Shown: one piece after another, positions 6,328 through 18,963 of the stretch | Position numbering within the stretch: position 1 is the stretch's first letter | Layout: each line of letters opens with the position of its first letter | Sequence record: MT446400.1 | Length of the DNA: 51,200 bases | Source: Escherichia virus TH26 | Reading direction: 5' to 3' (one strand) | Translations under genes and position numbers: made by a program | Notes under the pieces: generated by a model | Told to the model about the DNA's origin: nothing | Databases searched by the model: none | The model's input: the letters and a program-made list of their open reading frames with translations, nothing else

Positions 6328-7482
6328 TTATGGTGTTTCAGTGAAAATTACAGACGCAGTTGTGGCTTCTGCCTTCTTATCAATGTCCAGTTCGATTGTG
6401 GCAATTCCAGTAGGACTTGCAGAAGTACCAATGAACAATGAGTCAACCTGGACACCGTTGGTGGCATCCATGATAGGTTTGAAACATTCTGACCAGATAA
6501 CAGAATCACCTGGGTTCAGTGAGTTGATATAATCCATCATAGCCGTTTGCAATTGGCGTGCAGCATCGTTGGAGCTAATGTTAGAACCAGGGCGACGCTT
6601 GAATGTACCAGCTACATAAATGGTTGCATCTTCTGGACGGCTGAACTTAACTTCGTGCGGATAACCTTTACTGTCATAAATAGACACAGATGTAGTACCG
6701 TGAGTAGGAACACCACCAGTTTTGGTTGAATAGATTCGACGGGCAATTTCGTCCTCTGTTCCACCCTCTACGACAACAAAGACTGTACCCGAAGGCTGAG
6801 TCCCAATAGGAGCGCCGGTATCATTATCACGAATACGAAGGTAAGATAGATTAAGGTCAGCGAGTGCAGCGTAAATAGCTTCAACAAAGGCCGAACCGCT
6901 GTGCGCAGTAGTCCTGTCACGGCGAGTACGAAGTGCTGGGTCAGATTCATAATCCACACCTGTTTGTCCAATCTCTGGGTTGTTAACTGACTCCCAACCT
7001 GTGACTGGTGTAATGATTTTATTGACAGTGTCGGCAGCAATATAATATTCGCCAGTTTCTGTGGCTACTGCCGTAACAGTTCCTGGAATAATGCAATCAT
7101 ATTGCGTTTCGAAATCCGTTGTTCCATCACTGACAATAGAGCCAGCAGGAACAAGAGTGCCAGCCTGACCAGCACAACGGACACCAACACGAGAAGGCCA
7201 GTTGACCAATCGTTTAGTGAAGGTCAGTTCACAGATGTTGTCCAAACCAATCTTCTGCATTGCACCAGGACGATAGGCATTGAATACCATTTCAGCCTGT
7301 TGCCAGCACTTAGAGATTTCTTCCGAAATGATTCCAATAACCTGACCATCTGGGCCTTCTGGACTAATGTCAAAGTTGGCACCAAATACGCTAAGGAATC
7401 TGCTATTAATGTGCGACACGATTTCTTGAACAGGCTTCTGTACGAACCCGTTTTCAGTCACGCCGTACTGGATTGTTGCCAT
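6328..7482 (-). CDS. Baseplate protein J-like
   Basis: 384 aa; size and position (after the gpW-like gene, before gpI-like and fibers) match a Baseplate_J wedge protein. Confidence 0.55.
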   Translation of the reverse strand: MATIQYGVTENGFVQKPVQEIVSHINSRFLSVFGANFDISPEGPDGQVIGIISEEISKCWQQAEMVFNAYRPGAMQKIGLDNICELTFTKRLVNWPSRVGVRCAGQAGTLVPAGSIVSDGTTDFETQYDCIIPGTVTAVATETGEYYIAADTVNKIITPVTGWESVNNPEIGQTGVDYESDPALRTRRDRTTAHSGSAFVEAIYAALADLNLSYLRIRDNDTGAPIGTQPSGTVFVVVEGGTEDEIARRIYSTKTGGVPTHGTTSVSIYDSKGYPHEVKFSRPEDATIYVAGTFKRRPGSNISSNDAARQLQTAMMDYINSLNPGDSVIWSECFKPIMDATNGVQVDSLFIGTSASPTGIATIELDIDKKAEATTASVIFTETP

Positions 7483-7829
7483 GTTAAGTAATCCTCAAGA
7501 TTCCCATAATCGGAGATAGCAATGAATGAAATTCTTACTTCACGCTCACGGAAATCAGCATCAATGTTTATAGAGATAAGTTGTTGAACACCAGGGGTGC
7601 TTCGAATGACGTTGGCGATAGCCGCCTCAATGTCGGCAGTTCGAACAGTTTTAGTGAAGATTCCTTCAAACCAAGGAAGACCAGTGGTCGGGTCATGTTT
7701 CCATTCTCCGAACACCGTCAGCAATCTGCACTTAACTATTTGAGCAACTTCTTCTACACCACCAACCCTGGTTGCACCACGACCAATAATAATATCGTGG
7801 TTAGAATCTAGTAGTAAGTTTCCAGCCAT
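7458..7829 (-). CDS. Baseplate wedge protein (gpW/gp25-like)
   Basis: 123 aa; small protein between the spike and J-like genes, as in Mu/P2 baseplate modules. Confidence 0.4.
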   Translation of the reverse strand: MAGNLLLDSNHDIIIGRGATRVGGVEEVAQIVKCRLLTVFGEWKHDPTTGLPWFEGIFTKTVRTADIEAAIANVIRSTPGVQQLISINIDADFREREVRISFIAISDYGNLEDYLTWQQSSTA

Positions 7830-8620
7830 TATTTCATCGGCCCTACATCGCCGCCTTCTGGGTTAGTGTGGGTGTGTTCGTTAACCGTAACTCCGTTAAT
7901 GGTGAACGTGCCTTGTTGAACCATGTCGCCTGTGATTGCCATCGTTCCACCACTGCCACCTGACACTGACATTCCACCAAGAACTGTGAGTGATTTGGTA
8001 ACTGTAGTGTCACCATCCAAAAGGATTTGCGGCGAGATAACAGACGCTTTTTCTGTCGCTTCGATTACTATCTCCGAATCTTTCGTGATTGTAATCTTTG
8101 CAGCACCAGTGATAAGTTCTACCTTTCCGTCACCATGAAGAGTCATACGTTGGTCACGACTTGCATTTCGGAGTTCAGCAACTCCGGCATTAAATCCTGG
8201 TATTGCACCTGGAATTGGTTGTGTCCCAATAATGCACACAGCAGAGTTGTGAGAGAACAACTGACTAAATGCTGGGGCAGGTCTTCCACCAACCATTCCA
8301 GCAGAATCTTTATTCTCTGCCAGCCAATGTTCGATTCCACGTTGGGCAAAATGAACATAGCAAGGAGTGCCATCTGGGACTGGATGCGTTAAACTCCAGC
8401 CACCACCCTGAATGAATTGTACGGGAACATTCCTGAGCCGCTTCTTCTTCTCCAGGGTGTAGGCATTGGTGTAGCCTGTGAATAGGTTTTCGATTGCAAG
8501 CTGCACCTCACATGTTTGAGTTACAGCATCGAAGTTATAAATATGGCCTGGGTATCCTGTGTTAACAGTTGCAGACTTTACATCGTTGTTATGACTCGCC
8601 ACGTTCAAGTACACTCGCAT
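7829..8620 (-). CDS. Baseplate central spike (gpV/gp45-like)
   Basis: 263 aa; Gly-rich beta-helix-like C-terminal part ending in the HTH...GGD motif typical of gpV-type spikes (NEHTHTNPEGGDVGPMK). Confidence 0.5.
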   Translation of the reverse strand: MRVYLNVASHNNDVKSATVNTGYPGHIYNFDAVTQTCEVQLAIENLFTGYTNAYTLEKKKRLRNVPVQFIQGGGWSLTHPVPDGTPCYVHFAQRGIEHWLAENKDSAGMVGGRPAPAFSQLFSHNSAVCIIGTQPIPGAIPGFNAGVAELRNASRDQRMTLHGDGKVELITGAAKITITKDSEIVIEATEKASVISPQILLDGDTTVTKSLTVLGGMSVSGGSGGTMAITGDMVQQGTFTINGVTVNEHTHTNPEGGDVGPMK

Positions 8621-8951
8621 CTACGATGAAGAGAAACATTTGTCGCCAAGTGTAAATCTCTTCTCCTGGGCTTACAGTATTCGTAACGTACATGTTCGGC
8701 AGCGGTGTACTGTATTGTTTAAGAATATCAATACCACCACGAATAGGGATTCCATAAACCTTTTCGGATGAACCCCAAGCAAGGTCAAACATGTAACAGT
8801 TCAAATACTCGTTTAAATACAATGCAGACATTTTGACTGTGATGCCACGGAATTCAAAAGATACATCCTTTGAAATATCGTATGGAACAGTCTTCACATA
8901 TCCTGGTGGGAGTAGTGATAATATTTCTTGCAGTGCTTGTTGTTCTGTCAT
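8589..8951 (-). CDS. Hypothetical tail/baseplate protein
   Basis: 120 aa ORF inside the baseplate cluster; no motif recognised. Confidence 0.3.
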   Translation of the reverse strand: MTEQQALQEILSLLPPGYVKTVPYDISKDVSFEFRGITVKMSALYLNEYLNCYMFDLAWGSSEKVYGIPIRGGIDILKQYSTPLPNMYVTNTVSPGEEIYTWRQMFLFIVDASVLERGES

Positions 8952-9850
8952 TTGAACAGCCTTCCTTTAACCGAGGACAGTGGGGATTCAAGTTTGGCAA
9001 GTTTATCTTTCAACGTACCAAGCTGACTCACTGCCGTAGCACCAACTGCCCCCAGACCTGGGAGAGTTATGCCAGCACCACCGAGAGCACCTATTCCAGC
9101 ACTTTGAGCAATCTTCCCAAACTCTGAATAGTCTGTCATGGACTGTATTGCTTTACGGGCTTCGATTGCCAGAACATCTTCACCTATAACTTGCAGCTCT
9201 TCCAGCGTAATTTCAACAGCCAGGATTGCAGAAGTCATCTTGTCAGTCTTGGTTCGAATGCCTGTTACTACGCAATTCAAATAAGGCCCAATGATGGTGG
9301 AGATGTATAGTTTGGTTCCGGTAGAACGGAAGTTGTTGAACAAATCATAGGTGGACTGGATTCGGTTGCTTGTTTCAAATGCAGAGGCAACAGCGCCAGC
9401 AGCAGCACCAATGATTGGGATGATTGGGTTGTTAAAGATTGCACCAGTGGCAACAGATAAACCCTGAACAGAAGCAGTCCACATTGCAGCGTTCTGCATG
9501 TTTGTTGCAACAGCAGTTAGTTTTAAGATTCGGTTTTGTTTGATAATGTGGTCACTGACCATGAAGCCAGAACTTACAGGGAACTTGGTAACGACCGACT
9601 GAGCATCGTGCTCTTCACTAACAATTGCATCGAACTTAAAAGAGTTGAAACTCTCTGGGGCCGAAGATGTAACAAGAGGTTCCATTGTCTTGGCAATGCC
9701 ACCAAAGGCTTTACCAAACAATCCTTCATCTTCTTTCTGTACCGATGGGCCATTTGACCACATGATTATAGATGGGTTATGCCCATAGCTAAATGCTTTT
9801 GACAGGGATGACAATCCATCCCCGATAAGACTTGTATCAATTAATGCCAT
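8948..9850 (-). CDS. Tail/baseplate hub-like protein with glycine-zipper hydrophobic segments
   Basis: About 300 aa if translation starts at the internal Met that overlaps the upstream stop (ATGA); contains IIPIIGAAAGAVASAF and GIGALGGAGITLPGLGAVGATAV. Confidence 0.35.
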   Translation of the reverse strand: MALIDTSLIGDGLSSLSKAFSYGHNPSIIMWSNGPSVQKEDEGLFGKAFGGIAKTMEPLVTSSAPESFNSFKFDAIVSEEHDAQSVVTKFPVSSGFMVSDHIIKQNRILKLTAVATNMQNAAMWTASVQGLSVATGAIFNNPIIPIIGAAAGAVASAFETSNRIQSTYDLFNNFRSTGTKLYISTIIGPYLNCVVTGIRTKTDKMTSAILAVEITLEELQVIGEDVLAIEARKAIQSMTDYSEFGKIAQSAGIGALGGAGITLPGLGAVGATAVSQLGTLKDKLAKLESPLSSVKGRLFK

Positions 9851-10956
9851 TAGAAAGACTCCATAGCCATTCCACTGTTTAAGTAGGCTTGCTGCCAAGC
9901 CGCTTCTTTACCGCCCATTGCAGTATTGCCGCCAAGCATTGCAGTGATGGTTGTTTGGAAAACAGTTTCATGGGTTGAGCCATGATGGACAACTTCTGTG
10001 ATGAAGTATTTATCTTCCATAGCCCAACGGAACACGCTTTGGTCTGTGTTAAGAACAACACCCTTTCCAGTTACCGAAGTAACACCATTTGCTAGTAGTT
10101 GTTCTCCCAACAAAGGGGACACATCAAGAATCATTCCTGGTTGATAGCTAGCGTTAAGAAATGTGTTCAGGGAGTATGTTGCAATTCCAGCAATAGGGTT
10201 CCCAATAACCTGATTGGCATCCAGCTTGATTGGTTCACGGTCTTTTGACATTCTGTCTACAGCATCTTTATTGCCGTAGGTGTCTGGAAAGATTTGAATC
10301 TCACCAGTTGTTACTGAGAATAGTAAATTATATTCCCCAAGCAAGGCCCGGAATTCTTCCAAGAATGTGTCATGGAATACTCGACCTAACTTCAATTGAG
10401 TTTTGAATACAGACTCTTCAACACCAAAAGATGAAATGGTAGAGAAGCCATAATCCGCACACATAGAACGAATAGCATCTTCCAATGTTGCGCCATTTGG
10501 AATATCTTTCATCTGAGTAAATTCAGTAGATGCACCATAGGCTTTGGAGATACAAAACAATTGTGTTACGTGTTCTGGAGGACGTCTGAATCCAACTGCG
10601 TTTGTTACGATGCCAGAGAAGATTGTTGGCAGGACTTGACCAATCTCAATCCTTACTTCCGAATCCATCTGACTTGGGCTTTGATACTTACTGTGGCCAG
10701 CATTAACGACACGCTCGTCTTCGTAATATCCTGCACGAATTTCAATATACATATCACCATAGGACTTGTCTTGAAGGAATTTAACTTCATCGACGCCCAG
10801 GTTGTATAGAGTAATATCGGCAGTATCTGCTGGCCAACCAACAGTTGACCGGATGGTGAAATCAATCTTGTGTGCTTTAAACACAGACTTGGTTTCTGGG
10901 TCATCCTTTCTTGAGACAACTATCTCTATACCACGCATCCACGGCATGTTATACAC
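9850..10956 (-). CDS. Tail protein (Mu gpN / DNA-circularisation-like by position)
   Basis: 368 aa; first gene downstream of the tape-measure gene, as in Mu-like tail modules. Confidence 0.35.
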   Translation of the reverse strand: MYNMPWMRGIEIVVSRKDDPETKSVFKAHKIDFTIRSTVGWPADTADITLYNLGVDEVKFLQDKSYGDMYIEIRAGYYEDERVVNAGHSKYQSPSQMDSEVRIEIGQVLPTIFSGIVTNAVGFRRPPEHVTQLFCISKAYGASTEFTQMKDIPNGATLEDAIRSMCADYGFSTISSFGVEESVFKTQLKLGRVFHDTFLEEFRALLGEYNLLFSVTTGEIQIFPDTYGNKDAVDRMSKDREPIKLDANQVIGNPIAGIATYSLNTFLNASYQPGMILDVSPLLGEQLLANGVTSVTGKGVVLNTDQSVFRWAMEDKYFITEVVHHGSTHETVFQTTITAMLGGNTAMGGKEAAWQQAYLNSGMAMESF

Positions 10957-10984
10957 CTATTGAAATTAATACATATTCAAATAA

Positions 10985-11018
10985 TGTTAAAGAAGAATGC
11001 CGAGATTAAATCCCGGCA
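10985..11018 (-). terminator. Rho-independent terminator candidate downstream of the tape-measure gene
   Basis: On the minus strand: 8-bp stem TGCCGGGA...TCTCGGCA with a TTTAA loop, followed by TTCTTCTTT. Confidence 0.45.
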
Positions 11019-11023
11019 CTTTC

Positions 11024-14000
11024 TTATCTGCGTTCCATTGCACCATTACCCATGTTGATTGTTTGGGTAACAGTTTGACCGTTCGGAGTTGACACGGTTG
11101 CAGACGCTTGCTTGTTGTTCACAGTAGCTTTGACTTCAACGTTAACTACAGTGGCCTGTGTCTGACCATAAGACAGTCCATTTCTGGTGAAGCCAGTTGC
11201 ACCTTCCGCAATAGAATCGCCCTGAGAAGCCCATTCACGGTACTTCTTGACGCGGTTCTGTGCCTGTAGAGGAACAGCATTGAGCCAGTCGGTTCCGTGT
11301 TTGTTGATAGCATCATCAACAGTTCCAGCACCATCCGTATACGCCGCCATAACCTTCTCAGCGTCACCATTATAACGCTTGAGCATTGCATCATAGTAGT
11401 CACGACCAACGCGAGCACGCTCTTCCAGAGAGTTATCACGGGCAGGTGTAACGCCAAATCCTGGGTCACGGGAAGTTGAATCAAGAACTTGCATACGACC
11501 TTTAGCACCAGTTGGCGATGTAACCACCGAACCATCTGCGTTCAAATCGCGGTTCCCTGACTCTTCTCCTGCGATAAAGTCATAAACATTACGTGTTGCA
11601 TCGGCTGCACCATTGGGGGCCATACGCATCGTTCTGGCTGCATCTCCACCTGCTTCGATAAATGAACTTCCGTAGGATATTGCAGCTTGCGGAACTGCAT
11701 ATCCTGGCAGCACCCCAGCACGCTCCGTCTGCGCTATTCCTAGCTGTGCAACGCCATCGGCATACTGTGAGCTGGCTCCACGGCTTACGTTCTCCTGAGC
11801 CTCGTTCACGCTGTAATCTGTACGGTCATAGGCGCGAGCCATGCCATCCAGACCAGCCATTTGCATAGCGCCAGCGATACGCGCCTGACTCCAGCCCCGC
11901 TCCTGACCACGTTCGCGCATTACCCGCGCTAAGGCTACAGGGTCGCCCTGTGCCGCACGAATGTCGCCAATTGTGATAAGACCACGGGTTCCCTGAACGA
12001 TGTTCACAGCGCCGCTGGGGTCGCCATTCAGGAGAGTGTTATAGGCACTATGTGTGGTTCGATTGAGTCGGCCAGCTTGTTGCTGATTAAGCCCCAACAT
12101 TTCCAAGCCCTGCGACATGGAAGAATATTCATTAGGGTTATTGACACCAGCGTCTAAAGAGTTTCCGTAGAAATCGTTCAGACCTTCCAGAGCTTCGTTA
12201 CCAATTTGGGTAGCACCAATAGCCATACCAGCGACACGACCCCACGGAGTCATCATCATGGCATTCATAGCGCCATTGGATAAAGAGCCAATACTGCCAC
12301 CAGCTACGCCAGCAGCCAATGCACCACCCATGCGACCGAAGTCATCGCCAAAACTTCCACCAGCTTGCCACCCACGACGCCCACCACCGCCACCAGAACC
12401 ACCACCGCTAATGCCATAGCTACTAGCATCAATGTTGTCCCAGAAGCCGCCTGAGCGCCCACCGTCGCCACCGCCGAAATCTGCATCCTGACCACGGAGT
12501 TTGTTTTCTTCCTGTGCTGCGAGGATACCTTTCTTAACCGACACAGCCATCATGTCATTGCCAGTTGTGCTATCAGCGCCAACAGCAGAGGCTGTAGCAG
12601 CACCAACTCCAGCATCGGTACGGTTGCCTATGAATGGGTCATCAGGTGTGCCAGCAGCAGGAGAGTAGCCACGATTTGACCTCTGCTTAACATCCTTCCA
12701 CAGGCCGTCACCAGTCATGGCAGCACGAGCACCCTTGATTAAATCATCATTGGACAAGTCTGGATTAGCTTCAACAAACTCTCGACCAGCATTAAGACGA
12801 CCAATAACAGAATCAATCTTATCTTTGTTGCGGTCGTACCATCCTTCATCCTTGTCAATCCACTCCGACTTCGTGGTATCGCCGATGGTTTGAGAAAACA
12901 ATGCGCGCGAACGACCAGATACAAGCATCCCAAATTGAATTTGGTCCATGTAATCTTTATGGTCACCCGCAGATAAGTTGGCAAACTTGCCAGCCCTTTG
13001 AGGGTTCTTGTGTTCCCAAATCGCGTCATCGCCGATAAGACCATCTGGGGAATACATGAACGACGGATAATTGTCATTTGTAATTGCGCCAGCTTGCTCA
13101 ATGTCGAATCCAAATTCTTTGGCTACACGGTTACGAGCAACTTCTTCCGTCCGATGGCCTGCTTCGAACATTCGTTGGGTAAATTCACTTGGCCCCTTTC
13201 CGCGTTGTAGGCCAATTTTGTCAATCATTGCAGCCCAAGGTCGAGTATATTCATTGTTACCAAGAAATGAACCGACAGTTGAGCCTGTAATGTCATATTG
13301 TTTACGGAAGTCTAACCACTCCTGAGTACCCTGTTCCATATTATGAAACTTGATTGGGCCTTGTTGTGGTTCAGGCTGAGGAACAGCGGAATCCAGGTTT
13401 GCGATTGCAATGCTCTCACGACGAGAGCGAGCAGAGTTCCAACTCGTTGGTGAATCAAGCTGTGCAATAAACTCTGTAGATGGACTTAATTCAACAGGTC
13501 CAGTGTTTCTTAAACGTTCAGCAGGGTCGAAAGTCTTACTGATTTCAGCTTCATTATATTGGTGAGCATTTTCCAGTACGCCACGAATAGATGCACCAGA
13601 ATAACGAGGGTCATCACCAATATCTTTCTTTAGGTTGTCATAACCAGAACGAGCATCTGCAAGGTCTGTATAACGAGATGCAGAATCAAGAATCAAATCT
13701 CGGTCAGAAGATTGAGTGCGATATGCGTTCATCCCTCGTTCTGAACCACCAACATATACCTTAGCAGCAGATTTAACTACGCCAGATACATCTTGATATA
13801 AAGATTTACTTGCATCAGACCAACCTGGGGAGCCAGATAATGATGCAGATAAAGAATATTCAGCTTTAATGCCAGAACCCATAGAGCCTAAAGGTAGGCC
13901 AGATGCGTTAAGCGGTTGTCGGGGATGTTGAATATCACCAACAATAGATTCAGAACCAAGTTGAGGAAGAGAATCCATGTATGAAACTCTTGGCCCCGAC

Positions 14001-14698
14001 TTATTACCTACATTCATTGCAGATACAGCAGCAACTTCACGGAAGTTTTGCGGCAATTCTGATTCTAAACGTTTGGCTACACGATAAACATCTCGTGCAT
14101 AGCGGTCTGGGTCGTCATATTGTTGACGGTCAACATATATATGAGCAAGATAGCCCATAGATTTGGCAATATCTCCACGGTTTGTAGAGTATTCACCCAT
14201 AATGTCACCAGTGTAATGACCAGGAAGTTCCGGCATTATATCTTGATGACCTGCCAGCGTATCACGCATGTACGCATTAAGCATTCCCCAATGACCTTCT
14301 GGTTTGTTTGGGTTTGCTTTAGGCATGTGCATCCACACATCATCGGCGGATACACCTAATTTCTCCATGTAGGCATGAACAGCTTCTACATGGTGACTTG
14401 GACCGTTCATTGCAGCATGGAATGTTTCAGCAAGCCCAGCACCAGAAATCATCTGTGCAACGTGAGCTGAGTCTGAAATCATGTCGGAAGTGCCATAAGA
14501 GATGCCATCATCTTCTGTATAGGTTTCTTCCATAAGCTGTGAATTTGTTTCCATCCAACCAGAGGCAGCACTTGATTCAAGTTGCTGTGCCATATCTCGT
14601 TTGCGCATACCTGGATTGAATGACAGACCATATTGAGCACCTAAGCCAATCAATTCGGCTTCGGACATTCTCATTAAATCTTTTATGTTATTAGCCAT
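11024..14698 (-). CDS. Tail tape-measure-like protein with C-terminal lytic transglycosylase (SLT)-like domain
   Basis: 1224 aa; lies between the tail chaperone and baseplate genes; central Gly-rich tract (GGGDGGRSGG...GGGSGGGGGRRG); C-terminal segment with SLT-like motifs (ESGNRD...GAKGRMQVLDST...AYTDGAGTV). Confidence 0.5.
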   Translation of the reverse strand: MANNIKDLMRMSEAELIGLGAQYGLSFNPGMRKRDMAQQLESSAASGWMETNSQLMEETYTEDDGISYGTSDMISDSAHVAQMISGAGLAETFHAAMNGPSHHVEAVHAYMEKLGVSADDVWMHMPKANPNKPEGHWGMLNAYMRDTLAGHQDIMPELPGHYTGDIMGEYSTNRGDIAKSMGYLAHIYVDRQQYDDPDRYARDVYRVAKRLESELPQNFREVAAVSAMNVGNKSGPRVSYMDSLPQLGSESIVGDIQHPRQPLNASGLPLGSMGSGIKAEYSLSASLSGSPGWSDASKSLYQDVSGVVKSAAKVYVGGSERGMNAYRTQSSDRDLILDSASRYTDLADARSGYDNLKKDIGDDPRYSGASIRGVLENAHQYNEAEISKTFDPAERLRNTGPVELSPSTEFIAQLDSPTSWNSARSRRESIAIANLDSAVPQPEPQQGPIKFHNMEQGTQEWLDFRKQYDITGSTVGSFLGNNEYTRPWAAMIDKIGLQRGKGPSEFTQRMFEAGHRTEEVARNRVAKEFGFDIEQAGAITNDNYPSFMYSPDGLIGDDAIWEHKNPQRAGKFANLSAGDHKDYMDQIQFGMLVSGRSRALFSQTIGDTTKSEWIDKDEGWYDRNKDKIDSVIGRLNAGREFVEANPDLSNDDLIKGARAAMTGDGLWKDVKQRSNRGYSPAAGTPDDPFIGNRTDAGVGAATASAVGADSTTGNDMMAVSVKKGILAAQEENKLRGQDADFGGGDGGRSGGFWDNIDASSYGISGGGSGGGGGRRGWQAGGSFGDDFGRMGGALAAGVAGGSIGSLSNGAMNAMMMTPWGRVAGMAIGATQIGNEALEGLNDFYGNSLDAGVNNPNEYSSMSQGLEMLGLNQQQAGRLNRTTHSAYNTLLNGDPSGAVNIVQGTRGLITIGDIRAAQGDPVALARVMRERGQERGWSQARIAGAMQMAGLDGMARAYDRTDYSVNEAQENVSRGASSQYADGVAQLGIAQTERAGVLPGYAVPQAAISYGSSFIEAGGDAARTMRMAPNGAADATRNVYDFIAGEESGNRDLNADGSVVTSPTGAKGRMQVLDSTSRDPGFGVTPARDNSLEERARVGRDYYDAMLKRYNGDAEKVMAAYTDGAGTVDDAINKHGTDWLNAVPLQAQNRVKKYREWASQGDSIAEGATGFTRNGLSYGQTQATVVNVEVKATVNNKQASATVSTPNGQTVTQTINMGNGAMERR

Positions 14699-14866
14699 TG
14701 TCTTCTTCTTTAGGTTTTAATTCATTACGCAAATCAAGTATTGCGTGGAAGGTCAACAAATCCATAATAGAGTAGGTCCCATCTTGTAACTCTTTAAGAG
14801 AACAGAGTGAACTGTCCTCTATTACAGGACGGTGCAAGAAGTATCTTATTTCCGGGAACTTTGCAG

Positions 14867-15325
14867 TTAAATCGTTTCCGGACTCGAATTCTTCTGCTCG
14901 GCCATCTTGGATGCCTCCGCCGCCTCCAATCGTCTGCGTTCGTTGAGTTCGAGCCCTTGCTTGAAAAAATCAAGGAAGTTCGATTCCAAAACAAATGCAA
15001 ACACATGGTGCATGAGCATCAAGTTGCCGTTGTATTTCATCTGCATAGTGCGTGGATTAACTTCGACACCATCAATGGTTGCCATACACACTACACGTTT
15101 AATCAATTCTGTTACTTCATTGCTCGTCCCACCTTGCTGCATTAAATAAATAATGTCTGCAAAGTTATATTTATTCTCAACGAACGGGAAGATTGAAGTT
15201 CCGAGTTTCTGAACAAGCTCGACTTGAAGGTCAAGAGCTTGGCTGGCACTCAATTGACGAGTACCAACCAAGACAACATCACCAGAGTCGGCTTGTAACT
15301 CGCGTTGACGAAGTTCACAAGCCAT
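14867..15325 (-). CDS. Tail assembly chaperone (gpG-like, by position)
   Basis: 152 aa acidic protein between the tail tube and tape-measure genes. Confidence 0.35.
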   Translation of the reverse strand: MACELRQRELQADSGDVVLVGTRQLSASQALDLQVELVQKLGTSIFPFVENKYNFADIIYLMQQGGTSNEVTELIKRVVCMATIDGVEVNPRTMQMKYNGNLMLMHHVFAFVLESNFLDFFKQGLELNERRRLEAAEASKMAEQKNSSPETI

Positions 15326-15340
15326 GCTCTTACCTTAATG

Positions 15341-15796
15341 TTATACGCCGATTTCTGGATACTGACCAGTTACGATGGTGAGGCGCTCTACAAAGATAGC
15401 CCACATGTTGGATGTAAAGGTTACACCACGAACAATAGCAGGCTGTTGTAGGATTGCACCGTTAACACCGTTAACCAGAACGTCACCCATCTTATCCACC
15501 AACTGAATCTGCAAAGGTTCCCACAGAGATTTGTTACCAGACAAACCAGTTGCACGAGTAAGTTGTGCACGTTGATACAGAATTTCATTCCAGTCAGCAG
15601 TTTGCAGCAGAGGGAAAGTAATTACCCCAGACTGGTCAGCAGTGGTTGCTACAGCAAGTTTGCCGTAAGCATCCATAACAGGAACATGCTGTGGCACGTT
15701 GTAGCGTGCCGTAATTACAGATTGCCCTGCCTGAAAACCGTCTACACGAGCACCGTCAATCAGGAGGTCTGTATTATAAAACGAATATTGCTTCAC
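15341..15796 (-). CDS. Tail tube protein
   Basis: 151 aa; immediately downstream of the sheath gene. Confidence 0.5.
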   Translation of the reverse strand: MKQYSFYNTDLLIDGARVDGFQAGQSVITARYNVPQHVPVMDAYGKLAVATTADQSGVITFPLLQTADWNEILYQRAQLTRATGLSGNKSLWEPLQIQLVDKMGDVLVNGVNGAILQQPAIVRGVTFTSNMWAIFVERLTIVTGQYPEIGV

Positions 15797-15805
15797 TGTT
15801 CACCC

Positions 15806-17254
15806 TTACTGAATGAAGTTGCCAGAGATTACAGCACCCTGGATTGCACCGGAACCGATAGCAATAAAGGAAGTACCTTCCCAAATACGTTCACCCTTCT
15901 GCGACTGCAAGAGTTCCAACGGAGTAGAAATAACTTTGTAGCCTTCTGGATAGAAGACACCTTCGTTATCATAGCCAGGGGCAATGAGGCCGTTAGTCTT
16001 AGCGAGTTCGAGCGCCAGGGTTACTTGCTGGTTAACCATTGCTACACCAGTGTCCGTCCAAGGAATCTTGGTAGTGGAGGTGTAGAACAAGTTGAACACG
16101 TTCAGTCGGACTTTCTGAGTTAGCCATTCAACACCTTGTACGGAGTCGAACCACGTCCCATCAGCCATACGACCATTGAAGAACATTACGTTGCCAGCAA
16201 CAGAAATGAATGCGTTACCACCACAAGAAAGCAGCGCACTTACCTGACCAGAAGACAGGTCAGCAGTGGTGATACCTGGACCTTTCTTGTATGCCAGGAT
16301 AAGAACAGAGTTTGCAACGTTGAAGTTAACAGTTGATGCACGACCCAGGATAGAAATTTCCGGATATTCATCACCATTCGCAGAGGCATCGTAAACACAC
16401 AGAGTGTTACGCAGGTTCTGGTTCTTAGCACGACGGAAGCTGTTATCAGTGCCGTTGATAAGAATGTTCTTGTCACTGTCGCCCCAACCAAACACTTTGC
16501 TGGATGCTTCACACCACTTCGCCACGGACATTTGGTTGTCCACTGGAGTAGATTTACCACGGTACTGGCGGTCAAGACCTACATAGAAGAAGTTGAACGG
16601 AGCATCTGCAATAGCAGACAGGTCAGAAGAGATGGACAACTCGTTCTCACCTGCAACAATGACTGCGTTGTCAGAGGATTGCAGTTTAAGAACTTCACCA
16701 ACTTTACCACCAACGTTACTGATAGTTGCGTTAGCGCCAGTTGCAGAGGTAGTTAGTTTAAACTTACCAGCCTCTTGAGTAACAGTTACGCCAGCACCAA
16801 CGGAAGACAGTGCGGTAGTTACCAAAGTTGCAACTTCGTCGAAGTCGGGAGCAGAAGGGAAGTCAATCGGGTCAGTGACGTACTGAACACCGCTAACACT
16901 TAGTTGCAAGGTTGCAGCAGTTTCCAGCTTAATCGTTGCCAGTACAGCAGAAGTTGCAGCAGTAACAGTGGCAGGAGCTGCCGGAGTCAGGGTATCATAC
17001 TTGATAGCACCGACCAGGAAAGTCTTCGGAGTTGGCTTCTGCGAGTACCAAGTAGTAGCAGCTTTAGCAATCTCACCACCAGGGAAGTCTGCGAGAACTT
17101 CTTTCAAGCTGGTGTAGGAGCGAACCGGATATACATCAACGGTCGGTACAAACTCTTTGCTCATGAAGAGCAATGGCCCAAAACCATCAGTCGCAATGGC
17201 GTTCGGGGAGATAGTGATATCAACCTGAACTAAGTCAGAAATTGGGATTGACAT
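15806..17254 (-). CDS. Contractile tail sheath protein
   Basis: 482 aa; size, beta-rich composition and position (before tube, chaperone, tape-measure) typical of myovirus sheath proteins. Confidence 0.6.
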   Translation of the reverse strand: MSIPISDLVQVDITISPNAIATDGFGPLLFMSKEFVPTVDVYPVRSYTSLKEVLADFPGGEIAKAATTWYSQKPTPKTFLVGAIKYDTLTPAAPATVTAATSAVLATIKLETAATLQLSVSGVQYVTDPIDFPSAPDFDEVATLVTTALSSVGAGVTVTQEAGKFKLTTSATGANATISNVGGKVGEVLKLQSSDNAVIVAGENELSISSDLSAIADAPFNFFYVGLDRQYRGKSTPVDNQMSVAKWCEASSKVFGWGDSDKNILINGTDNSFRRAKNQNLRNTLCVYDASANGDEYPEISILGRASTVNFNVANSVLILAYKKGPGITTADLSSGQVSALLSCGGNAFISVAGNVMFFNGRMADGTWFDSVQGVEWLTQKVRLNVFNLFYTSTTKIPWTDTGVAMVNQQVTLALELAKTNGLIAPGYDNEGVFYPEGYKVISTPLELLQSQKGERIWEGTSFIAIGSGAIQGAVISGNFIQ

Positions 17255-17256
17255 TA

Positions 17257-17775
17257 TTAAACCTTTTTGGTTGTGATAAGTGTATTACCATCATAGAAGT
17301 TGCCACCAACATATGCGCCAGACATGACTCCGATAGGACTCAAATCTTCACGAATAATATTGAATTGCATTTTAACCGCTTGGCGAACTTCCCAATTGGT
17401 TTCCATTTGTATGGTGGCAAGATTTAAAGGTTCTTTACCAAGAGCAGCAAACTTCTCCTGCTTCAATTTGGCTTGAACATCGGGACGGTAAAACGAATTA
17501 TCAAACTTGATAAATTCATCACCCTCACGAGAAAACAATATTGCAAATGTCAGAATACGAACACCACGAGTACGGAACATTTCTTCACCATCAATGGTTA
17601 CTATCCTATTCTCGTCAAAGCCTGGGTTGGTGCTTGATAAACATTTGATTGCGGCATACTCCCCATGGGGTCTGGGAGCATTGATTTGCATGTTGTAGGT
17701 AAACTTCGGAATACCTACACACACATCTACAATCTCTTTCATGGACTGTAGTTCTTCGAGTCGAATATCCATCAC
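17257..17775 (-). CDS. Hypothetical neck / tail-completion protein
   Basis: 172 aa ORF between the head-tail joining genes and the sheath; position only. Confidence 0.3.
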   Translation of the reverse strand: MMDIRLEELQSMKEIVDVCVGIPKFTYNMQINAPRPHGEYAAIKCLSSTNPGFDENRIVTIDGEEMFRTRGVRILTFAILFSREGDEFIKFDNSFYRPDVQAKLKQEKFAALGKEPLNLATIQMETNWEVRQAVKMQFNIIREDLSPIGVMSGAYVGGNFYDGNTLITTKKV

Positions 17776-18188
17776 TTCTCCAATACGCGAGCGGCAATTA
17801 CAGAGAAGAATCCGGCATCTTCATAATCGTCTATTGCTATAACTTTATACTGAATGCCATAAACAGTGATGATTGATTTCATCGGCATCTCAGTACGACT
17901 ATGAATCTTCATGAATGATGGTTGACGCTCACCAACATCCGTTGCTTTAAGCTGTTGACCAGCTACACCCGAATCCCTGTCACCATATGCAATAGGGGTG
18001 CAGCGGAACTTCTTCGGAGGCTCCCAAGAGTCTTCCACCCAATTGTTGAGATTGTCGTAATGACCTTCTATATATACTGCAAGGGTGGGGCGACCCGTGG
18101 TTGTATATCTGTTGAAAGCTAGGCGTTGATTAATCAAAACTGGAACCCAGGGCTTAACCTCGGCCCAGCAAATGCCATGCGCCTCCAT
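17772..18188 (-). CDS. Hypothetical head-tail joining protein
   Basis: 138 aa; position in the neck module. Confidence 0.3.
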   Translation of the reverse strand: MEAHGICWAEVKPWVPVLINQRLAFNRYTTTGRPTLAVYIEGHYDNLNNWVEDSWEPPKKFRCTPIAYGDRDSGVAGQQLKATDVGERQPSFMKIHSRTEMPMKSIITVYGIQYKVIAIDDYEDAGFFSVIAARVLEK

Positions 18189-18523
18189 TGCAAATAACGT
18201 TGACCGTACACGGTTGACATGAAATCAGCTTCGATATATGGAATAGTCGAAATGATTCGGTCGCTAAACTCTACCTGCACATCGTCCACATCGGTACGAC
18301 TTACAGGCATAGCTGGCATTGCGGCATCACCAGGCATTATGTCATCAATTGTTGAAGACCAATGCGCGACAAGTGATGCCATAGCTGGGTCATAAAACCC
18401 ACACCAACGCGATTCGATTGTACCCATAACAAGTTTTGCATCTTCAACTAAGATATCAAAACGGCCTTGGGTCATGTCAGCCATAGCCGGATAACGTTTC
18501 ACCAAATCGGTCAGTGTAATCAT
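18134..18523 (-). CDS. Hypothetical head-tail connector protein
   Basis: 129 aa; position in the neck module. Confidence 0.3.
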   Translation of the reverse strand: MITLTDLVKRYPAMADMTQGRFDILVEDAKLVMGTIESRWCGFYDPAMASLVAHWSSTIDDIMPGDAAMPAMPVSRTDVDDVQVEFSDRIISTIPYIEADFMSTVYGQRYLQWRRMAFAGPRLSPGFQF

Positions 18524-18963
18524 TATGCCAACTTATCGTAGAGGGCCAGTTTAGCTTCTTCCGGCATATCTTTGATGTTCACGCCGTTAGCAACCAACAC
18601 TTTATCAATGTCAGGCATACCAACTTTCACGCGTTCAACAATAGACAGGCTGCCAGCTTTGATAGCTTCTTTGACCAGGTTTACTTTACGAGTTTTACCC
18701 GTGGTGTAATATTCCTTAATCACGAGTGCTTCTTTGCCAGACTTAACGTCAGCACCGATGTTGGAGTCGTCCAGCTTAACTACTTCTTCACGCATCACTT
18801 CAACTTCAGTGACAGAAGAGGTAATTGCTTTATACACTTCATCATCAATTTCAACAGTTGCACCGCCAGGAATGTGTACAAAATCCAGCACAGGTTTGCC
18901 AGATTTATCCTTCTTGTAGAAGAAGAATTGGAGGTTGCGAGTTTCGTTGTTCTTGAGCTGCAT
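18523..18963 (-). CDS. Hypothetical structural protein
   Basis: 146 aa ORF immediately downstream of the capsid gene. Confidence 0.3.
   Translation of the reverse strand: MQLKNNETRNLQFFFYKKDKSGKPVLDFVHIPGGATVEIDDEVYKAITSSVTEVEVMREEVVKLDDSNIGADVKSGKEALVIKEYYTTGKTRKVNLVKEAIKAGSLSIVERVKVGMPDIDKVLVANGVNIKDMPEEAKLALYDKLA

Follow-up and report, generated by a model that had tools for sequence, protein, structure and literature searches.

The 51,200-nucleotide stretch of Escherichia virus TH26 analyzed here (MT446400.1; the whole stretch is called the window below) contains an open reading frame (ORF) of 1224 amino acids (aa) on the minus strand (11024..14698; ATG at 14698, stop at 11024-11026), which is the tail tape measure protein (TMP) of a phiEcoM-GJ1-like (Chaseviridae) coliphage. 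While muralytic domains in TMPs are well known, this protein also carries a nuclease domain of the lambda-exonuclease type, which is unusual for a tape measure. Judged from sequence and predicted structure, the protein would be a string of modules composed of a SAP-like N-terminus, a helical domain, the nuclease, a Gly-rich linker, a second helical domain, an SLT lytic transglycosylase domain and a C-terminal tail. We give a probability of about 0.68 to the reading that it is the tail tape measure and pilot protein of a Chaseviridae myovirus, with this architecture and with the mechanism proposed below.

An earlier note on this DNA had delimited the same ORF, and its start, stop and strand agree with our analysis. 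The note read the ORF as a possible combined tape measure and cell-wall-penetration protein with an SLT-like segment near the C-terminus. The gene slot, the frameshift signal, the detection of a homologue in virion preparations of 4HA13 and the SLT domain support this reading, but it was incomplete, as the nuclease had been overlooked. Two modules were missing from its domain map, namely the YqaJ domain at aa 449-665 and the SAP/Rho-N-like motif at the N-terminus.

The protein shares 97.6% identity with its homologue in Escherichia virus TH37 and 97.1% with the one in Yersinia phage PYps16N. At least 80% of its length is covered in 79 phage records, all of them phiEcoM-GJ1-like Chaseviridae myoviruses, and a word-indexed homologue search returned 85 full-length homologues. 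Its full-length match in PHROG is family 19855, "virion structural protein".

The nuclease domain

The lambda-exonuclease/YqaJ PD-(D/E)XK nuclease occupies aa 449-665 (12704..13354, minus strand), or approximately 18% of the protein. Pfam YqaJ (PF09588) matches aa 460-596 with E = 2.5e-12 and 47.8 bits against a cut-off of 22 bits, and RecE-like exonuclease families of PHROG match aa 426-640. The narrower lambda-exonuclease model of NCBIfam, TIGR03033, gives 45.8 bits, below its cut-off of 68.05, and does not assign the domain to that subfamily. Among solved structures the best sequence match is the alkaline exonuclease LHK-Exo (3syy). A family profile raised this match to E = 3.9e-16 and also found lambda exonuclease (lambda Exo) with E = 6e-7. 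The fold of the domain agrees with lambda exonuclease/YqaJ, with lambda Exo and LHK-Exo as the closest structures.

In lambda Exo, R28 belongs to the 5'-phosphate pocket, and D119, E129 and K131 carry out catalysis. The family-profile alignment places W461, R465 and T471-G-S473 opposite W24, R28 and T33-x-S35 of lambda Exo, E518 opposite E85, the SPDGL motif with D552 opposite SPDGL with D119, E562-H-K564 opposite E129-x-K131, and YMDQIQ opposite YMAQVQ. R465 is the predicted 5'-phosphate-pocket residue equivalent to R28. The catalytic codons lie at 13043-13045 (D552), 13013-13015 (E562) and 13007-13009 (K564) on the minus strand. In the lambda Exo entry 3sm4 the column aligned with K564 holds Ala, as this entry reads ELACP where other lambda Exo entries read ELKCP. 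Like lambda Exo, LHK-Exo and YqaJ, the TH26 domain has the D-E-K triad, an equivalent of E85, the arginine of the 5'-phosphate pocket and the Q/Y motif.

To assess conservation, we aligned 84 family members with overall identities of 41-97%. Q456, G457, W461, R465, T471, G472, S473, G514, H515, E518 and R522 are invariant in 84/84, and so are S550-G556, W561, E562, H563, K564, Y583, D585, Q586 and Q588. The catalytic residues, R465 and the other residues paired with lambda Exo are kept down to an overall identity of approximately 25% (relatives at 25-29%), with the exception of the relative P0104 described below. Compared with the 91%-identical gene of PYps23T, the ratio of nonsynonymous to synonymous substitution rates (dN/dS) of the nuclease segment is 0.11, and the nuclease is at least as conserved as the SLT domain. 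Since its residues are invariant and the segment is under purifying selection, we judge the nuclease to be functional; it is apparently active and not a relic. A recent insertion, an intein or a homing element was rejected as its origin, because the position of the domain does not change within the family: it is constant in every relative down to 25% identity and in each of the three Chaseviridae lineages studied.

The genetic context differs from that of known enzymes of this type. SynExo exonucleases are free proteins of approximately 200-230 aa, unlike the TH26 nuclease, which is embedded in a 1224-aa virion protein and encoded in the tail module instead of beside an annealase. No single-strand annealing protein that could make up a SynExo pair is adjacent to it, and the nuclease-bearing gene is flanked by tail genes. 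Automated annotation already flags the domain in the family ("putative endonuclease", "exonuclease"). A full-text literature search, with most subscription journals outside its coverage, found no paper on a nuclease inside a tape measure. The candidate papers examined concerned ordinary RecT/YqaJ pairs and were set aside.

The SLT domain and the remaining regions

The SLT (GH23-type) lytic transglycosylase domain spans aa 1037-1160 (11219..11590, minus strand), with the codon of the catalytic E1046 at 11561-11563. The earlier note held that its SLT assignment would fall if profile searches gave no match at the C-terminus. Pfam PF01464 matches aa 1059-1135 with E = 1.4e-6 and 28.3 bits, above the cut-off of 21.3 bits, and the segment also matches endolysin and lytic-tail families of PHROG. 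The catalytic E-S, G-x-x-Q and A-Y-x-x-G motifs are intact: E1046-S1047 and Q1070 are each kept in 83/84 family members, and A1119-Y1120 and G1123 in 84/84. The motifs are also kept in distant relatives, and the domain has a lysozyme-like (goose-type) fold. With both fold and catalytic motifs in place, it is a predicted peptidoglycan-cutting enzyme.

At the other end of the protein, aa 1-48 (14555..14698, minus strand) form a predicted helix-extended-helix that weakly resembles the SAP/Rho-N DNA-binding motif. This putative DNA-binding assignment is tentative and comes from the predicted fold, since Pfam scans of the fragments aa 1-60, 75-380, 666-839, 840-985 and 1161-1224 (E up to 10) gave no meaningful match. 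The family-specific helical N-terminal domain or domains at aa 75-380 (13559..14476, minus strand) are confidently predicted, and a fold search with them returned no match.

Between the two enzymes, aa 666-835 (12194..12703, minus strand) are predicted to be disordered, with a predicted local distance difference test (pLDDT) score below 50 at aa 663-835. The region has one conserved helix at approximately aa 716-734 and, at aa 793-835, a Gly/Ala segment of weak hydrophobicity. A classical transmembrane helix was considered and dropped, as the top 19-residue Kyte-Doolittle window reaches only 1.02 (aa 793-811). The Gly-rich tract of approximately 60 aa that had been pointed out earlier is found at aa 741-802 (12293..12478, minus strand), where 26 of 62 residues are Gly (42%); aa 742-792 are 45% Gly compared with 12% in the whole protein. 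Across the family the composition of the tract is conserved and its length is variable. The periodicity of Trp and Phe is weak, as had also been remarked: at periods of 11, 22 and 33 the Fourier power is borderline at best (p ~0.05 against shuffles), and there is no signal at 3.6 or 7.

The conserved helical domain at aa 840-985 (11744..12181, minus strand; pLDDT 84-94) is the slowest-evolving part of the protein, with a dN/dS of approximately 0.05. The C-terminal tail at aa 1161-1224 (11027..11218, minus strand) is conserved and beta-rich, with three predicted strands at low pLDDT and a dN of approximately 0 against close relatives. By analogy with phage 80alpha, we infer that this tail is the end proximal to the baseplate and tip.

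Gene position and identity as a tape measure protein

The protein is labelled a tape measure because of its gene position and the frameshift signal next to it. On the minus strand the gene order is tail terminator (17257-17775), sheath (15806-17254), tube (15341-15796), tail assembly chaperone (TAC; 152 aa, 14867..15325), the 1224-aa ORF, baseplate hub (9850-10956), Dit-like protein (8948-9898), plug (8589-8951), spike N-domain protein (7829-8620), W-like wedge subunit (7458-7829) and J-like wedge subunit (6328-7482). The TAC matches Pfam Phage_TAC_15 with E = 2.7e-15 as well as phrog_11820. The ORF listing of the window shows no further ORF in the interval from the TAC to the baseplate hub. 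Aeromonas phage ZPAH14 has its genes in the same order, as do relatives, one of them a likely prophage, with an identity of 27-28% in the N-terminal region and 25-29% overall.

The TAC gene has a slippery heptamer, T_TTT_TTC, at 14969-14963 (minus strand, codon 120), followed by an open -1 frame of 90 codons (14691..14969, minus strand), whose stop at 14691-14693 lies just inside the beginning of the tape measure gene. The -1 fusion is predicted to yield a product of 211 aa, which would be the analogue of G/GT. Judged by its sequence features, this is the G/GT-type signature that is conserved ahead of tape measure genes. The -1 frame is unannotated in those relatives whose annotation was inspected.

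The homologue in phage vB_EcoM-4HA13 (4HA13; 64% identical, 1204 aa) was the second most prominent protein in liquid chromatography-tandem mass spectrometry of virions, with a coverage of 64-67% (PMC9699118). Neither half of the protein could alone give this coverage. A fusion of two genes by sequencing error was ruled out, as the same single ORF is found in more than 80 independent genomes.

Public labels for the protein are of at least six kinds, namely tail fiber, tail tube initiator, tape measure, virion structural protein, putative endonuclease and exonuclease. Several RefSeq names of PYps23T also look wrong: a 73-aa "tail tape measure protein" (gp36) and two "baseplate wedge proteins" are located within the replication module and a "tail fiber protein" within the early genes, and a protein of 78 aa is named "endolysin".

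In the whole window every large ORF is on the minus strand, and a tRNA scan found no tRNA genes in it. Structural and replication genes have a GC content of approximately 0.45-0.48; at the right-hand end, with the early genes and the RNA polymerase, it falls to 0.38-0.42.

Distribution and evolution

At the sensitivity used, all Chaseviridae lineages examined have this architecture, and no phage of another group was found to have it. The 85 homologues from the word-indexed search all share one length, and both Pfam domains are present in nearly all of them. A HMMER search with aa 1-450 against 1.84 billion representatives returned only 19 proteins, of which the full-length ones have approximately 1150-1300 aa. 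Even the most distant of these (27-28% N-terminal identity) have the YqaJ domain at aa ~445-605 and keep the catalytic residues of both enzymes, except for the relative P0104, in which the W...R segment is lost. Among 50,697 phage genomes searched, the whole N-terminal half was found only in approximately 80 Chaseviridae. A further 159 phage records matched in the nuclease domain only, and among the matches listed these were stand-alone recombination exonucleases of the RecE/YqaJ/Cas4 type. A word-indexed search with the nuclease alone gave 8 small stand-alone YqaJ proteins; it missed the protein's own family and is weak on other fusions. On these homology searches, the embedded nuclease is a hallmark of Chaseviridae.

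One distant member lies on a 39.7-kb metagenomic contig with the order terminator, sheath, tube, TAC and homologue. Another is found in bacterial contigs of 4.8 Mb and 1.6 Mb (GCA_002206365.2 and GCA_016103045.1; loci 8001-11567) in the same order, with both YqaJ and SLT present, a N-terminal identity of 28% (~29% overall) and adjoining capsid and tail genes. It is probably a prophage, and as this apparent prophage carries YqaJ and SLT, the architecture is not confined to virulent Chaseviridae. The relative on the 39.7-kb metagenomic contig (L002) additionally has a gene of the RelA_SpoT family (alarmone synthetase-like; 17583-18629) amid the baseplate genes, flanked by those for the spike-N-domain protein and the sheath initiator.

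In Shewanella phage Spp001 (Nefertitivirinae; L007, 7793-11253) the tape measure slot holds two ORFs of 674 aa and 423 aa, an apparent split of the protein. The 674-aa protein has a C-terminal YqaJ domain with intact motifs, and the 423-aa protein is homologous to the helical domain at aa 840-985 (E = 8e-5). A Pfam scan and pairwise BLAST detected no SLT domain in these slot proteins of Spp001. The close relative SppYZU05 matches aa 1-673 of the Spp001 query, which itself ends at 674 and is silent on where the ORF of SppYZU05 stops. In Aeromonas phage ZPAH14 the slot holds a single ORF of 1205 aa, which RefSeq names "exonuclease".

The gene is also mosaic within itself. Compared against MLP1 (L009) and P0005-P0031, there are two nuclease alleles (approximately 56% and at least 75% identical to the TH26 domain), which assort independently of the type of N-terminal domain and both have an intact active site. 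Against MLP1 the nuclease has a dN of 0.40, while its flanks have 0.055 and 0.009; against PYps23T the dS ranges from 0.07 to 0.84 along the gene.

A record named "Staphylococcus phage Pel53" (PP952070.1; host Staphylococcus hyicus) holds a homologue that is approximately 64% identical, with an identity and length typical of the Chaseviridae of E. coli. Since a Gram-positive host is odd for this group, the label is doubtful, and it is possible that the record is mislabelled or contaminated.

Comparison with known systems

Muralytic TMPs include Pb2 of T5 and the SLT- or M23-bearing TMPs of Gram-positive phages. The TH26 protein resembles these in its slot after a chaperone with a frameshift signal, its C-terminal peptidoglycan-cleaving domain and its presumed ejection before the DNA. 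It is unlike them in that it additionally has an exonuclease domain for DNA and an N-terminus that is a putative DNA binder, and also in that it matches no TMP family and is predicted to be largely globular or disordered instead of coiled coil. In mycobacteriophage TM4 the muralytic part of the Tmp is a motif 3/Rpf-like domain within the tape measure (PMC1796659).

T7 gp16 is likewise a large virion protein of more than 1200 aa with an SLT domain that is ejected into the cell envelope. Unlike the TH26 protein, gp16 has its SLT domain at the N-terminus, is stored in a podovirus capsid and has no nuclease domain. In concept the TH26 protein is also comparable to N of phage Mu and gp2 of T4, which are delivered by the virion, protect DNA ends from RecBCD or circularize the DNA, and do so by binding without catalysis. 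All of these would be tail- or neck-associated proteins that enter with the genome and handle its ends. However, the TH26 module is an exonuclease fold with a conserved active site, unrelated to Mu N and T4 gp2 in sequence and fold.

Proposed mechanism

In phage 80alpha the N-termini of three TMP copies are located at the neck and bound to the tail completion protein, which contacts the DNA end, while the C-termini are at the tip, and it has been proposed that the TMP exits with the DNA as a pilot (bioRxiv 10.1101/2024.12.10.627806). By analogy, three copies of the TH26 protein would lie in the tail lumen with the C-terminus at the baseplate and the N-terminus at the neck, by the genome end. 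Upon contraction of the sheath, the C-terminal end would exit first and the SLT domain would cleave peptidoglycan, while the flexible Gly-rich region would allow the chain to be threaded through. The N-terminal half with the SAP-like motif and the nuclease would then travel with the leading DNA end into the cytoplasm. The N-terminal half is placed in the cytoplasm because the nuclease is conserved and an in-cell substrate for an exonuclease would be found only there; apart from this, the enzyme could meet DNA only in the form of its own phage's genome, inside the virion or during transfer.

In the cytoplasm the nuclease domains would fold, probably as a trimer like that of lambda Exo, and would digest 5'-phosphorylated double-stranded DNA (dsDNA) ends in the 5'-to-3' direction. 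A speculative substrate is the phage's own direct terminal repeats of approximately 3.2 kb. Such repeats measure 3234 bp in Mangalitsa and 3120 bp in 4HA13, and Chaseviridae relatives are annotated with a T7-like RNA polymerase and replication genes. Resection would leave 3' tails on which RecBCD cannot load, and these tails could anneal and thereby circularize or concatemerize the genome. In its most specific form, the proposal is that three SAP-tethered N-terminal halves form a lambda-Exo-like toroid in the cytoplasm and resect the ~3.2-kb repeat before phage gene expression, which would both hide the end from RecBCD and prime annealing; in this full form we consider it unlikely.

Opposing evidence and alternative explanations

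Several observations weigh against the proposed tape measure and pilot protein. A folded nuclease of 22 kDa, and even more so a trimeric toroid, would fit poorly in a tube lumen of approximately 4 nm. As the lumen should be too narrow for the domains to lie side by side, the nuclease in the virion must be staggered or stacked, unfolded or located in the neck. The entry of the N-terminal half into the cytoplasm and the activity of the nuclease are steps reached by analogy. The relative P0104 has lost the W...R segment with the pocket arginine and has H515 replaced. A search of the depositors' annotation of PYps23T and Mangalitsa, which is not an exhaustive profile scan, found no RecT, Erf or Red-beta, and the phage carries a separate FEN-type 5'-3' exonuclease. 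Pfam and NCBIfam gave no match to tape measure family models. AlphaFold predicts globular modules joined by disordered linkers with no long coiled coil, and on this model the protein is not a classical extended coiled-coil ruler. The tail of 4HA13 was measured at 116.5 nm, i.e., 0.97 Å per residue compared with the 1.5 Å per residue expected of tape measures, at which 1204 aa would predict a tail of approximately 181 nm; by plain arithmetic, the prediction becomes approximately 122 nm when the SAP, nuclease and SLT modules (~390 aa) are left out. The mass spectrometry evidence for a virion location is also unclean, since single-stranded DNA-binding protein was detected in the 4HA13 "virion" proteome at a coverage of 62% (Table S2 in PMC9699118) and the preparation thus held non-structural proteins.

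The missing family match and the un-ruler-like structure could be taken to mean that the protein is not a tape measure at all. Instead, it could be a tail fiber, a "tail tube initiator" or an ejection protein like T7 gp16, with the tail length set otherwise, and relatives are indeed annotated as "tail fiber protein" and "tail tube initiator protein". However, the interval between TAC and hub offers no alternative candidate gene, the TAC with its frameshift signal lies directly upstream, the length is held within approximately 1150-1300 aa across the family, genuine fiber genes are found elsewhere in the cluster, and the similarity to gp16 is limited to the SLT domain. We therefore regard this explanation as very improbable. 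A structural role for the nuclease fold alone, either as a trimerization module for the TMP chains or as a neck clamp on the 5'-phosphate end of the genome, would agree with the established trimers of lambda Exo and LHK-Exo, the closest structures, and with the three TMP copies of 80alpha with their N-termini near the DNA. The SAP-like motif at the N-terminus and the persistence of P0104 despite the loss of its W...R segment also fit such a role. Against this, D552, E562, K564, E518 and Q586/Q588 are invariant in 84/84, which neither a structural nor a binding role alone would require, and the catalytic motifs persist at 25-29% overall identity (P0104 excepted). Additionally, the nuclease is located approximately 450 residues from the N-terminus, away from the end that would contact DNA. 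Because the catalytic residues are invariant, we regard such a role as less likely and, overall, as improbable.

A more serious rival is that the nuclease is an injected effector for offense or counter-defense, directed at the DNA ends of the host, plasmids, competing phages or defense systems. The nuclease is exchanged as a cassette, a pattern that is frequent for host-interaction modules, although mosaicism is common in phage genes and not specific to an arms race. The likely prophage relative, which presumably has a different genome-end biology, retains the nuclease, and an annealase partner is absent from the annotation of PYps23T and Mangalitsa, as noted above. On the other side, enzymes of the lambda Exo type require a pre-existing dsDNA end, and each virion would bring in no more than a few copies. 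The arginine of the 5'-phosphate pocket suits any dsDNA end and hence does not discriminate between possible targets. We take the counter-defense role seriously while holding it to be somewhat unlikely, and our preference for resection of the phage's own termini is a weakly supported guess.

Implications

A catalytically conserved exonuclease in a tape measure implies that this segment is delivered to the cytoplasm and offers an enzymatic handle on that delivery. TMPs are usually seen as rulers that possibly aid in breaching the envelope; the nuclease suggests that the tail delivers an enzyme that processes DNA ends into the cell together with the genome. Phages with long terminal repeats may in this way shield or connect the ends of their genomes right at entry. 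If the proposed resection of the terminal repeat is true, the TH26 protein would be the first virion-injected DNA-end-processing enzyme that is built into the tail ruler, and a segment of a myovirus tape measure would be directly shown to enter the cytoplasm. A correct domain map would also improve annotation across Chaseviridae, several of which are in development for biocontrol or therapy, with E. coli, Yersinia, Erwinia, Pectobacterium and Aeromonas as the targets.

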